A DNA stretch of 57,777 nucleotides, from contig JAYPJF010000001.1 of assembly GCA_038128225.1 (NCBI GenBank), positions 318,740-376,516 on the forward strand, in the 5' to 3' direction. Below, one piece after another: positions 4,266-7,400 of the stretch. Source of the DNA: a bacterium (GTDB lineage Bacteria > Patescibacteriota > Minisyncoccia > Phycocordibacterales > UBA2100). The position numbers were made by a program, and so were the translations under genes. The notes beneath the pieces were generated by a model, which did not search any database, had not been told where the DNA came from, and was given only the letters and a program-made list of their open reading frames with translations. The stretch's first letter is position 1. The number at the start of each line of letters is the position of its first letter.

Positions 4266-5945
4266 TCTTTTGTTCCGTCCAAAAAACACAAAAAAGAAAT
4301 CGAAGTGTCTTTAGACACTTCTCATCTTAGCTAAGAGTTTGATCCTAGCTCAGGGTGAACGCTGGCGGTATGGATAAGGCATGCAAGTCGAGTGGGTTTA
4401 GACCCACGGCAGACGAGGTAGGAACACGTAGGAACGTACCCAGAAGTCGGGCATAATCGGTCGAAAGGCCGGATAATTCCCGATGGTCCCGCAAGGGTAA
4501 AGATTTATCGCTTCTGGAGCGGCCTGCGTAGCATCAGCTAGTTGGTAGGGTAATGGCCTACCAAGGCAATGACGCTTAGGGGAGCTGAGAGGCTGACCCC
4601 CACCGATGGAACTGAGATACGGTCCTTACTCCTACGGGAGGCCGCAGTCGAGAATCTTCCGCAATGGACGAAAGTCTGACGGAGCGATACCGCGTGATGG
4701 ATGAAGTGCTTCGGTACGTAAACATCTTTTATAGAGGAGGAAGTCATTGACGTTACTCTATGAATAAGGGGCTCCTAACTCTGTGCCAGCAGGAGCGGTA
4801 ATACAGAGGCCCCAAGCGTTACCCGGAATTACTGGGCGTAAAGGGTGTGTCGGCGGTCATATTAGTCGCTTGTTAAAGCCCGGGGCTTAACTCCGGAATC
4901 GCGGGCGAAACGGTATGACTCGAGGGCGCGAGAGGTGAATGGAACTCATGGTGTAGGGGTGAAATCCGTTGATATCATGGGGAACACCAAATGCGAAGGC
5001 AATTCACTGGCGCGTTTCTGACGCTCAAACACGAAAGCGTGGGTAGCGAACGGGATTAGATACCCCGGTAGTCCACGCCCTAAACAATCCTTGCTGGATT
5101 TGGGGAGTATCGACCCTCTCCGAGTCGAAGCTAACGCGTTAAGCAAGGCGCCTGGGTAGTACGGTCGCAAGACTAAAACTCAAAGGAATAGACGGGGGCT
5201 CGCACAAGCGGTGGAGCGCGTGGCTTAATTCGTAGGTAAGCGAAGAACCTTACCAGGACTAGAAATCCAGCTGCAGACCGATGAAAGTCGGGGGCCTTCG
5301 AGGGTGCTGGACAGGTGATGCATGGCTGTCGTCAGTTCGTGGTTTGAATTGTTCCCTTCAGTGGGGTAACGAACGCAACCCCTGTTGCCTGTTACAAGAG
5401 TCAGGCGAGACTGCCCCCTCACGGGGGAGGAAGGTGGGGATGACGCCAAGTCAGCATGTCCCTCTGACGTCCTGGGCTGCACGCGCGCTACAATCGCCGT
5501 TACAAAGGGGCGCTAAGGCGAAAGCCGGAGCAAATCCCAAAAAGCGGCGCCAATTCGGATTGAGGTCTGCAACTCGACCTCATGAAGCCGGAATCGCTAG
5601 TAATCGTGGGTCAGCACACCACGGTGAATACGTTCTCGAGCCTTGTACTCACCGCCCGTCAACTCAAGGGAGCCGGGAAGACCGGAAGATCTCGTCTATC
5701 GAGGTCCAGGGTAAGCTCGGTAACAGGGAGTAAGTCGTAACAAGGCACGGGTAGCGGAAGCTGCTCGTGGATTCATTCCAAAACGGAAACGTCCTACCGC
5801 ATTGCGGCTAGTGACGTACCGGTCGGTTTGTGTAGCTCAATTGACTACACAAGGGTGTCGTAGTGACCATAAACGCTACGTGACGCATGGGAAAGATCAT
5901 GTGACAGTCGGGAAAGACCGAAAGTGTTCTGGACGGAACAAAAGA
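4266..5945 (+). other. 16S precursor processing stem (leader/trailer helix)
   Basis: TCTTTTGTTCCGTCCA (4266-4281) is the exact reverse complement of TGGACGGAACAAAAGA (5930-5945). The helix extends via GTGCA/TGCAC (4260-4264/5949-5953). Confidence 0.85.
4327..5782 (+). rRNA. rrs: 16S ribosomal RNA (Parcubacteria-like; ends approximate)
   Basis: Conserved blocks AGAGTTTGATCCTAGCTCAG (4334), ACTCCTACGGGAGG, GTGCCAGCAGGAGCGGTAA, ATTAGATACCCCGGTAGTCC, AAACTCAAAGGAAT, AAGTCGTAACAAGG and helix 45 with a GGAA loop. No intron-sized insertion is evident. Confidence 0.98.
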
Positions 5946-5954
5946 GTGTGCACG

Positions 5955-5982
5955 AAAACACCCGACTTGCGCGGGTGTTTTT
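5955..5982 (+). terminator. Intrinsic terminator ending the 16S transcription unit
   Basis: AAAACACCCG-ACTTGCG-CGGGTGTTTT-T hairpin immediately after the processing stem. Confidence 0.8.
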
Positions 5983-6020
5983 GCTACGCGTTTTCAAAAA
6001 ATATAAAATACATTAGTAAC

Positions 6021-6049
6021 AAAAACGCCCGGCAGTTTCCTGCCGGGCG
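6021..6049 (-). terminator. Intrinsic terminator (minus strand)
   Basis: 10-bp stem CGCCCGGCAG/CTGCCGGGCG with a GAAA loop on the minus strand, followed by TTTTT; 22 nt downstream of the 6072-6257 ORF. Confidence 0.85.
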
Positions 6050-6071
6050 CATTCTATGGAGAAACCAGAGA

Positions 6072-6257
6072 CTAATTGCGCGGACGCGTGTCGATCTTGT
6101 TTCGCACCTGGATATTCTTTTCACTCTTGCGCCGATTACCCCGGTTCTTCCCCCTCGACCTCTTCGGGGCTTGGTAGTTGCCCTTCGGGTCAAAGAGGTG
6201 TTGAAACTCCTGAGCGGGTTTGCGGCGGTGACCGTTAGGCTCTCGGCTATTCTTCAC
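6072..6257 (-). CDS. Small, highly basic hypothetical protein (61 aa)
   Basis: GTG start preceded by AAGGAG, its own strong terminator, and an Arg/Lys/Asn-rich product. Confidence 0.55.
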   Translation of the reverse strand: MKNSREPNGHRRKPAQEFQHLFDPKGNYQAPKRSRGKNRGNRRKSEKNIQVRNKIDTRPRN

Positions 6258-6324
6258 CCGGGTCTCCTTATCTGATCGTACGCACTCCTTTGCGTACTAG
6301 TTGGACAGCATAGCAACTTCGTGT

Positions 6325-6353
6325 TTGTGTGCAAGCTGCTTTTTTGTTAGTAT
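6325..6353 (+). promoter_or_regulatory. Promoter for the nested tRNA-Ile locus
   Basis: TTGTGT (6325-6330), 17 nt, then extended -10 TG-T-TAGTAT (6345-6353). The predicted start at ~6360-6361 is 1-2 nt before the outer tRNA 5' end. Confidence 0.65.
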
Positions 6354-6361
6354 GCCCCAAC

Positions 6362-6628
6362 GCGCGTGTAGCTCAGGTGGTTAGAGCACGTCACTGATAT
6401 CTGCGATATATGCACGGCGGTCGAAGAAAATAAGAGTAGTATCTTTTTTGTAACGTACGTAGTTTCCTGCGTGCGCGTGTAGCTCAGGTGGTTAGAGCAC
6501 GTCACTGATAATGACGAGGCCGTAGGTTCGAGTCCTACCACGCGCACGCAGGACGGTACCTACTCTTACTTTACTTCTCGCTTGTGCATATAATGACGAG
6601 GCCGTAGGTTCGAGTCCTACCACGCGCA
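6362..6628 (+). tRNA. trnI: Outer tRNA-Ile(GAT), interrupted at about position 37/38 by a 193-nt insert (exons 6362-6399 and 6593-6628)
   Basis: The 5' half (38 nt) and 3' half (36 nt) are each identical to the corresponding half of the intact copy at 6473-6546. Joining them gives a perfect cloverleaf. Confidence 0.8.
6473..6546 (+). tRNA. trnI: Inner, intact tRNA-Ile(GAT), no encoded CCA
   Basis: GCGCGTG/CACGCGC acceptor stem, GCTC/GAGC D-stem, CGTCA-CTGATAA-TGACG anticodon arm, GTAGG-TTCGAGT-CCTAC T-arm, discriminator A. Confidence 0.96.
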
Positions 6629-6630
6629 CA

Positions 6631-7341
6631 TCAATGCCTTTTCTGCGCGTAAATTGAGATGCTGCGGCGTTTGTGCGGTTTACCTGCGCGCACGTGGCCA
6701 AATGATTTTTGTACTTTGTGAATGATGTACTGTGGTTCGAGTTCTGCAATGAGTGTATCTTCGTCAAACACGAATTCTTGCACTCCAAACTCAGGATGCA
6801 TATACGAATGCGGCTCATCTCCCGGGTAGTCTCGAAGTAAGCGGCTCGCGTGCGAATCTTCATCAAGCAAGAATGTTTTTAAGAACAACCATCCGTCTGG
6901 GCGCAACACACGAATAATTTCTGAGCGCAGCCTCTCGCGCTCCTGTGTTTTGAGAACATGTGATGCCATCATGTCGAGCGCAAACATCTGCGAGTGATCG
7001 GGGAGTGGTATCGGTTCACGCATTGAATATACATCAAATGCGATAGGGAGATCGCCAATGCCTTTACGCGCTTGTTTAATTGCTTCAACCGATGTGTCAT
7101 AACCGAGCCCTCGAACTCCATAGTTTTTTGAAAGCCATATGAGATTGCGGCCATTGCCACAGCCAATATCTACCGCTTGCGCTAACGGATTAAGATACTT
7201 GCGCCCATACTCACGCTCCATCCAGCGGCAAAACTTTTGCAGGTCTTCGCTCGCGTCTCCAGAAAGATCGAGATACTCGGCGCGCGCGTATTCTTTATCC
7301 CAAAATTGTGTCCCGCGCTTCTTACGAGGCCTTCCTTGCAT
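6631..7341 (-). CDS. Class I SAM-dependent methyltransferase
   Basis: Motif I AVDIGCGNGRN, GYDTS and LRPDGWLFL. Start placed at MQGRP (7341); the upstream TTG/ATG alternatives are possible. Confidence 0.85.
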   Translation of the reverse strand: MQGRPRKKRGTQFWDKEYARAEYLDLSGDASEDLQKFCRWMEREYGRKYLNPLAQAVDIGCGNGRNLIWLSKNYGVRGLGYDTSVEAIKQARKGIGDLPIAFDVYSMREPIPLPDHSQMFALDMMASHVLKTQERERLRSEIIRVLRPDGWLFLKTFLLDEDSHASRLLRDYPGDEPHSYMHPEFGVQEFVFDEDTLIAELEPQYIIHKVQKSFGHVRAGKPHKRRSISIYAQKRH

Positions 7342-7400
7342 GACAGCCATTACAGCGCAAAAATCGTTGAAATGCAAAGGAAAAGTGGTTGTGGAAAAAG

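Follow-up and report, generated by a model that had tools for sequence, protein, structure and literature searches.

A tRNA-Ile gene nested within a second copy of itself

The window analysed here is a stretch of 57,777 nucleotides from a bacterium of the Patescibacteriota (assembly GCA_038128225.1, contig JAYPJF010000001.1, positions 318,740 to 376,516 of the forward strand); positions given without a contig refer to it. The genome that holds it (G000; 801,540 bp in 6 contigs, 100% complete) has 46 tRNA genes. One tRNA-Ile(GAT) is called at the locus described here, at 6473-6547 (ARAGORN; Rfam 74.5 bits), and ARAGORN together with a search of the genome against itself identified this copy as the sole tRNA-Ile(GAT) of G000. 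It lies inside a second tRNA-Ile that is broken in its anticodon loop, flanked by two arms, x and y. The locus is laid out as follows.

6345-6353, forward strand: extended -10-like box TGTTAGTAT, from reading of the sequence, ending 8 nt 5' of the outer 5' half
6362-6399, forward strand: outer 5' half, tRNA positions 1-37/38, with terminal CTGATA; 38/38 identical to 6473-6510
6400-6472, forward strand: left arm x of the insert, 73 nt, unique in the genome
6407-6415, forward strand: 5' strand of the distal helix, TATATGCAC; 9/9 pairing with 6584-6592
6466-6472, forward strand: 5' strand of the proximal helix, CCTGCGT, which runs on into the inner acceptor stem
6473-6547, forward strand: inner, complete tRNA-Ile(GAT), 75 nt (ARAGORN, Rfam)
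6548-6589, forward strand: right arm y of the insert, 42 nt, complementary to x (flank-duplex z -3.4), unique in the genome
6584-6592, forward strand: 3' strand of the distal helix, GTGCATATA, whose final 3 bases also open the outer 3' half
6590-6629, forward strand: outer 3' half, from A35 to the 3' end; 40/40 identical to 6508-6547
4327-5782, forward strand: 16S rRNA gene, as context (Rfam RF00177, 1354 bits)

The inserted DNA is thus bounded by direct repeats of parts of the tRNA, exact over 38 and 40 nt. The two outer pieces share an ATA overlap and together make up exactly one further tRNA-Ile, whose anticodon loop is broken by 6400-6589. The overlap leaves four possible splice registers (after position 34, 35, 36 or 37), the canonical 37/38 among them. 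Arm x consists of a small junction hairpin, the 5' strands of a distal, a middle and a proximal helix, and a TAGT-type box before the inner tRNA. These strands pair with the other side at 6407-6415/6584-6592 (9/9), 6427-6439/6560-6572 and 6466-6472/6546-6552. The proximal helix prolongs the inner acceptor stem, with T at -1 pairing with A73 and G at -2 pairing with C74. The whole 268-nt locus folds as a tRNA within a tRNA, with a minimum free energy (MFE) of -105.1 kcal/mol and a z-score of -3.95; none of 200 shuffled sequences folded as well.

Neither tRNA start has a promoter in a strict sigma-70 scan, which also did not call the TGTTAGTAT box. TAGTAT-like boxes precede, at the same distance, the un-nested tRNA-Ile genes of two relatives of the same family (L011, L016), and from its sequence the box may be the native promoter of the original tRNA-Ile gene. 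The locus begins 580 nt downstream of the 16S rRNA gene; Rfam finds no 23S rRNA gene after the 16S within the window, and the rRNA operon is therefore split. The spacer at 5783-6361 contains an open reading frame (5802-6275) without a Pfam match.

The nested order is present in the DNA

Logan unitigs were examined from three DNA runs belonging to three studies (X1 and X3, which are possible source samples, and X4, which is not flagged as a source). They break exactly at both repeats, giving pieces 5783-6391, 6370-6502, 6481-6537, 6518-6619 and 6600-7400, which supply every unique junction. In X1 the repeat units appear as unitigs of their own at depths of 24.6 and 33.1, against 14.5-17.5 for the unique pieces, and in X3 at 13.2 and 18.2 against 5.2-8.8; in X4 they are not separately listed. 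The nested order is the only path in which each unique unitig is used once. The unitigs of x and y have about the depth of the flanks, and there is therefore no sign of a sub-population without the insert.

Repeats of 38-40 nt carry a general risk of being mis-joined in a metagenome bin, and this risk is all that speaks for an assembly artefact. Against it stand the unique junctions recovered from three runs of three studies, the repeat units of X1 and X3 at about 1.5-3.5 times the depth of the unique pieces, and homologous loci in many independent assemblies, complete chromosomes included. We give an artefact practically no weight: the nested structure is real DNA.

The junctions carry no signature of a known splicing route

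A sequence-only reading of the locus had proposed that the insert fits no known tRNA splicing chemistry, and our analysis supports this. In the 37/38 register, which is the canonical position for an interruption and one of the four allowed, a bulge-helix-bulge would pair CTGA (C32-A35) with CATA (-6 to -3), and 0 of the 4 pairs form. The relaxed hBH/HBh' motif is likewise absent from the junctions, including the 34/35 register checked by hand; the MFE fold places a 13 x 1 nt asymmetric loop there. Read in the four registers, the last base of the insert is T, A, T or A, which excludes the omega-G of group I introns, and its first five bases are ATATC, TATCT, ATCTG or TCTGC, none of which is GUGYG. 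At 187-190 nt it has no room for a group II core, and it has no Rfam match; about 75 of its 190 nt are tRNA, and a group I P3-P8 core was not detected. An Rfam search of 5700-7000 at E<=10 returned no group I or group II intron and no self-cleaving ribozyme such as hammerhead, twister or hairpin, the real families in this region being the inner tRNA and the end of the 16S rRNA. The same reading had placed a 9-bp helix against the 3' junction, and the helix 6407-6415/6584-6592 does adjoin it. Its description of the 7 nt after the 5' junction as unpaired has to be corrected, since ATATC (6396-6400) can pair with GATAT (6404-6408) in a 5-bp hairpin.

We searched for splicing and repair enzymes in five genomes that bear nested loci (G000, G020, G116, G283 and G372; 96-100% complete). 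RtcB (PF01139), EndA (PF01974) and RNA_ligase were each found in 0/5; the control searches were positive, in 4 and 10 reference genomes for these first two families, and the families searched did not include Pnkp/Hen1, T4 Rnl1 or anticodon nucleases. A LigT-like 2H phosphoesterase (PF13563, 34.5 bits) occurs in one of the five, G000, at C2:31418-31717 on the reverse strand, and RVT_1 in two, G000 not among them. RNase III and RNase P RNA are present in 5/5, sufficient for maturation of the inner copy. These genomes therefore offer the ordinary tRNA maturation route and no known splicing route. The earlier reading had gone on to say that the outer tRNA, if ever matured, would need an unrecognised nuclease and ligase. 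The premise of that conditional statement is unlikely, as the outer copy looks dispensable in relatives. A need for such a route is improbable, since in all probability the inner tRNA alone is produced and the outer copy is a relic of gene conversion.

Nested loci recur in relatives

Inspection of 41 relatives revealed partial or full nesting in G017, G010, G020, G027, G029 and G038 besides the window. An exact pattern for the repeated 3' part found 24 loci in 23 of 401 genomes of the order: 6 Met tandems, 15 tRNA-Ile(GAT) and 3 tRNA-Ile(TAT) with a repeated 3' piece, so that 18 genomes of this sample have a tRNA-Ile followed by a repeat of its own 3' part; G271 counts in the sample and gave no match. 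An earlier order-wide pattern with 2 mismatches had returned mostly other tRNAs among the matches listed and served as a lead only. A scan for the repeated 5' part, with one genome per species, gave at least 12 loci named as, or resembling, the candidate phyla radiation (CPR) among the 80 matches listed, including Saccharibacteria, Yonathbacteria, Azambacteria, Zambryskiibacteria, Parcubacteria and Paceibacterota.

The loci fall into three split classes, in which the outer tRNA is broken in the anticodon loop (the window), the D-loop (for example L038, L044, L050 and L093) or the T-arm (L068). Two or three layers are present in L044, L050, L117, L099 and L139. In every class the outer pieces sum to one tRNA, with an overlap of 0-10 nt; this common core is the 3-nt ATA in the window and 10 nt long in G020. 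The literature searched yielded no account of one tRNA gene lying within another in bacteria, or of these CPR loci; as far as that literature goes, the hairpin-armed tRNA-Ile nests of CPR bacteria, some of them layered, appear to be undescribed.

Nested loci also occur at the tRNA-Ile(TAT) genes of other genomes (L039, L041, L059). G000 itself has a tRNA-Ile(TAT) at C1:99060-99133 on the reverse strand and just two CAT tRNAs, which suggests that AUA is read there by a tRNA with a UAU anticodon and not by a lysidine-modified CAU tRNA.

In relatives the outer copy often decays while the inner tRNA and the stem are kept

Fourteen anticodon-loop loci have homologous arms. We joined their outer pieces in silico and compared the product with the inner tRNA. 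In three loci (the window, G297 and G372) the joined copy equals the inner tRNA. In four others there are 1-6 differences (L040 with 2, L122 with 6, L053, where the anticodon is changed, and L019), and in the remaining seven of 14 the joined copy is incomplete, interrupted or not a tRNA. The outer acceptor strands of L122 and L135 are unable to pair; L117, L014 and G037 have a further small insert in a loop of an outer piece; and G037 keeps both arms with its outer halves decayed or interrupted. The outer copy looks dispensable because in relatives its halves are so often decayed, incompatible, interrupted or missing while the inner tRNA and the stem are retained.

The window and G017 differ at one D-loop base, which within each genome is the same in the outer 5' half and the inner copy; on such sequence comparison the outer and inner copies evolve in concert. 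Comparison of congeners bears on which copy came first. In G020, a nested relative of the same family, the outer 5' half stands behind the same promoter-like flank as the plain tRNA-Ile of G013. In the window, too, a promoter-like box, TGTTAGTAT, precedes the outer 5' half. The outer halves are therefore read as the original gene, and the inner copy with its arms as the addition. Most likely, the outer copy is now a dead, gene-converted relic that is never spliced.

A complementary stem surrounds the inner tRNA

The flank-duplex z-score is between -1.6 and -10.0 in 14/14 of the homologous anticodon-loop loci and at or below -2.5 in 8/11 D-loop-type loci. Plain tRNA-Ile loci give -0.7 to +1.5 in 9/10, with complementary flanks in a single one of the ten. 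Arm complementarity is thus specific to nested loci. Within G000, the lowest flank z among 45 tRNAs belongs to the tRNA-Ile. An alignment of 13 of the 14 homologous inserts, analysed with RNAalifold, has 44 pairs, 31 of them with compensatory double changes, which cover the distal helix near the junctions and the extension of the acceptor stem; in the distal helix, 5/9 pairs have changes on both sides in 5-6 sequences. GT stands at -2/-1 in 24/28 nested loci, compared with 1/10 plain loci.

Placed one after the other, the final 14 nt of y, the 3-nt core and the initial 26 nt of x form a hairpin of 11-13 bp in 9/11 loci, with the ATA core inside its 5' arm. The internal loop of the stem has bases that are invariant in the alignment, and the TAT-type loci have what is apparently the same pair of internal-loop motifs in reverse-complement orientation. 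A BoxA-like element considered in x was dropped, the stretch being base-paired and not conserved across the alignment.

No sign of a conventional mobile element

Neither arm has a second copy in G000, and the end motif of the D-loop-type loci is no more frequent than its control in the five genomes. The neighbouring genes in the window are housekeeping genes (SecDF, a methyltransferase, a cold-shock protein and MurD), and no integrase, phage or plasmid genes were found in or beside any locus examined. Each of the five genomes has one Xer-like tyrosine recombinase, two in G372, always away from the locus; the sole Phage_integrase-type gene of G000, at C1:188049-188564, is far from it. Y1 transposases (PF01797) occur in 2/5 genomes and are absent from G000, G020 and G372. 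We rejected a multi-copy mobile element, given that the arms are single-copy in G000 and the D-loop-type end motif stays at control level. A hairpin element of the IS200/IS605 kind, or of the kind formed by repetitive extragenic palindromes (REP) and their associated tyrosine transposases (RAYT), was rejected as well: G000 has no Y1 gene, the arms are unique, and only one locus, in G116, has a neighbouring Y1.

A probable DNA-level self-nesting duplication

We consider it likely that the locus arose at the DNA level by a self-nesting duplication in which the single tRNA-Ile(GAT) gene came to lie inside itself, that it is no intron-containing gene, and that the inner tRNA alone matures. The gene first present there, along with its promoter-like box, would have been opened at the ATA of its anticodon loop and would now hold about 190 bp, namely a complete tRNA-Ile copy between two mutually complementary arms. 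The arms would lengthen the inner acceptor stem into a long, interrupted duplex. Maturation of the inner tRNA could then proceed by an RNase III-type cut of the long stem, followed by RNase P, 3' trimming and CCA addition, leaving the outer halves as leader and trailer relics and requiring no splicing. Gene conversion between the close direct repeats would keep the outer halves identical, and decay would set in once conversion stops.

In quasi-palindrome template switching, or inverted-repeat complex duplication, one flank becomes the reverse complement of the other; the switch points lie at hairpin loops and microhomologies, and the palindrome arms stay matched. We infer that the locus belongs to this class, a process that to our knowledge has not been recognised as a source of a gene nested in itself. 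In the origin that we favour, a nascent strand stalled in a tRNA loop during replication would re-prime by microhomology on the like strand beyond the downstream hairpin. Running backwards, it would copy the trailer, pass C74 and A73 to reach the acceptor strand, and return via the acceptor-stem palindrome, and a mirror event would build the other side. Template switching would explain the arm complementarity, the unbroken -1/73 pairing, the breakpoints in loops, the single copy and the recurrence. Alternatively, an excised circle of the unit could have re-integrated through its palindromic junction, as a miniature analogue of tRNA-dependent lysogeny. Of the two origins, we lean towards template switching. 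A tandem triplication with complementary decay, suggested by a GGTTCG-like stretch in x, was set aside because the outer pieces always sum to exactly one tRNA in three split classes, because an outer half plus x is not scored as a tRNA by Rfam even at E<=10, and because the arms of D-loop-type loci can be as short as 19 nt.

Several observations weigh against a self-nesting duplication with a dead outer copy, or are not accounted for by it. Template switching predicts a y-like flank beyond the outer 3' half, and this similarity is significant only in the multilayer loci L139 and L099 (p 0.003); in the window it is not significant (p 0.08 and 0.4). The idea that the insert copies the present native flanks is unsupported in single-layer loci. 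Direct repeats 82-111 nt apart should delete easily, yet a homologous insert persists across classes; this persistence is unexplained unless the structure is useful or has moved horizontally. The reverse-complement motifs of the TAT-type loci hint, from sequence, at a DNA-level site that the duplication does not explain. Compensatory changes in the arms could reflect an RNA function or the self-correction of a palindrome without function, and the data cannot separate the two. A gene for a 228-aa RAYT-like Y1 protein, of the HUH type with an HYH motif, lies about 500 nt downstream of the layered D-loop-type locus of G116 (L038:396-1079 on the reverse strand, equivalent to about 423850-424533 of G116:C1), and is the sole such neighbour among the loci fetched. 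In the window, G297 and G372 neither outer half carries any defect, and it is possible that in these lineages the event is recent, the outer copy is under selection, or splicing occurs. Finally, about 5% of the sampled words occur in the RNA runs X19 and X20, and the only RNA contig (X19, metatranscriptome, 195 nt, four differences) lies in the spacer at 6087-6278, outside the nested locus, and does not bear on its processing.

A rival explanation has the outer tRNA maturing as RNA. An unrecognised endonuclease would excise the insert, or RNases III, P and Z would do so by attacking the stem and the inner tRNA; an unrecognised ligase would then join the halves, and one locus would yield two tRNA-Ile molecules. 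The allowed 37/38 register, the fully intact (100%) outer halves of the window, G297 and G372, a fold in which the two junctions meet at the foot of a conserved helix, and the LigT-like 2H protein of G000 (34.5 bits) are all consistent with this. We nevertheless regard it as very unlikely: there is no bulge-helix-bulge, ribozyme or intron match, EndA, RtcB and RNA_ligase are each missing from the five genomes with LigT-like in 1/5, the outer copy is defective or missing in 7/14 homologous loci that keep the stem, and the product would be identical to the inner tRNA, with no evident benefit. It is somewhat easier to imagine, albeit still improbable, that the whole nested RNA acts as a processing scaffold. 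In that case the outer halves would fold into a clamp resembling a tRNA, at which RNase P and RNase Z could enter, and would be kept by selection and not by conversion alone; the long stem would be a dedicated regulatory or processing element of tRNA-Ile. Compensatory change across classes, invariant internal-loop bases, persistence in very small genomes and the fold z of -3.95 point in this direction; the outer acceptor strands that are incompatible or missing in L122, L135, L102 and G037, the plain loci of sister species, which work without the structure, and the occurrence of the motifs in both orientations point away from it.

An integrative element could also have brought its own tRNA-Ile through a short core in the anticodon loop, leaving the insert as a miniature form or remnant, the remainder having since been deleted or the element being mobilised in trans. 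This would fit the short shared core (ATA in the window, 10 nt in G020), a host gene rebuilt at neither junction, an enclosed tRNA of matching isotype, insert ends that make up one palindrome opened within one arm, as expected of an attP-like circle site, and a further family of small inserts that these genomes have in tRNA loops (described below). There is a precedent in tRNA-dependent lysogeny, as outlined in PMC10865867. On the other side, no integrase, phage or plasmid genes lie in or beside the loci examined, the only candidate recombinase is Xer-like, one per genome (2 in G372) and located elsewhere, the arms are single-copy, the inner and outer copies are mostly of the same lineage-specific sequence, and complementarity runs along the whole arms and not just the core site. 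We think such an origin unlikely.

Beyond a self-nesting duplication at single loci, a wider idea can be put forward tentatively, as the less probable outcome: that a recurrent, undescribed process in CPR bacteria nests tRNA-Ile in its own loops, each round leaving a hairpin-armed cassette with a working copy, which would yield Russian-doll loci whose stem is a dedicated processing or recombination structure. In its boldest form, which strikes us as highly improbable, the lineages of the window, G297 and G372 would also mature the outer copy by an unrecognised nuclease and ligase route.

Comparison with known systems

Archaeal tRNA genes exist in intron-containing, split and permuted forms. 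The nested loci resemble them in being interrupted at or near 37/38 and in other loops, in having a long helix that joins the halves and, at some loci, in carrying several interruptions in one gene. They differ in lacking a bulge-helix-bulge, in belonging to bacterial genomes without EndA or RtcB, in having an insert that contains a whole tRNA and in the decay of their outer copies.

Group I introns interrupt the anticodon loops of bacterial tRNA genes, as summarised in a preprint by Williams (2020, 10.1101/2020.01.27.920355). The locus shares with the introns outlined there the interruption of a bacterial tRNA gene in its anticodon loop, and departs from them in having no omega-G in any register and no Rfam catalytic core at E<=10.

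In the tRNA-dependent lysogeny of actinobacteriophages, as presented by Guerrero-Bustamante and Hatfull (2024, PMC10865867), an essential tRNA gene is not rebuilt after insertion at a short core. The locus likewise has a short common core, an unrebuilt host tRNA and an enclosed tRNA of matching isotype. Relative to that outline, its insert is about 190 bp, without an integrase, phage genes or a temperate phage genome; its inner tRNA is identical to the host gene and its arms are complementary lengthwise; and it is single-copy, ancient and sometimes layered.

Integrative elements leave partial copies of tRNA genes, according to the descriptions in van der Gulik et al. (2023, PMC9897764) and Sugahara et al. 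(2012, PMC3293823). Partial-tRNA direct repeats adjoining an intact copy, breakpoints in tRNA loops and relics stacked at one locus are common to both situations. The classic cases, as these descriptions have them, repeat one side, usually the 3', and enclose kilobases of element, whereas here both halves flank an intact copy, sum to exactly one tRNA and hold no cargo.

Standard tRNA finders report the inner gene only, and nested loci are consequently overlooked; calling them intron-containing genes would wrongly suggest a protein-splicing pathway in bacteria. If the self-nesting duplication is correct, a single-copy essential gene has survived interruption since the interruption brings a full replacement, and the loci make up a natural series in which the outer copies range from perfect to decayed and the layers number one to three. 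With such a series, gene conversion, palindrome dynamics and the processing of tRNA precursors could be studied in unculturable bacteria. Lineages in which the outer and inner copies differ provide naturally marked exons, so that the splicing question can be addressed by tRNA sequencing.

Other insertions and repeats at tRNA genes

A second, structured insert family of about 125-140 nt occurs in G000 after tRNA-Gly(tcc), tRNA-Gly(ccc), tRNA-Pro(ggg) and tRNA-Glu(ctc). Its copies in G000 and elsewhere are listed here.

C1:177244-177402, reverse strand: copy in G000
C1:7841-7990, reverse strand: copy in G000
C2:218489-218630, reverse strand: copy in G000
C2:113557-113727, forward strand: copy in G000
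L117:2400-2560, reverse strand: copy elsewhere
L014:1340-1430, forward strand: copy elsewhere
Downstream flank of L022: copy elsewhere

The family has the core GAGGCGGGGTCG, and most copies have a GTGAC end. At the boundaries of each insert the 3' end of the tRNA, from the T-loop onward, is directly repeated over 18-30 nt, and the two Gly copies are 99-100% identical. The family has no Rfam match at E<=1; in its fold (z-score -4.2) the repeated tRNA end pairs with the 5' part. By BLAST it is present in 4/31 relatives, G000 included, and in other CPR genomes diverged copies break outer tRNA-Ile pieces in the T-loop or D-loop.

Also in G000, tandem repeats of about 47 nt lie 5' of tRNA-Leu(caa) (C2:34457-34760, reverse strand), each with approximately the first 13 nt of that tRNA. 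In gut Firmicutes (records of Clostridia, Christensenella and Erysipelotrichaceae), arrays of 1-3 units stand directly 5' of an intact tRNA-Ile(GAT), each unit being a tRNA-Ile 5' half plus about 80 nt, with a decayed T-arm in some; among the matches listed, these include L066, L072, L085, L095, L096, L126, L129, L140, L144, L145 and others. These pseudo-copy arrays are of a different kind from the nesting and apparently common.

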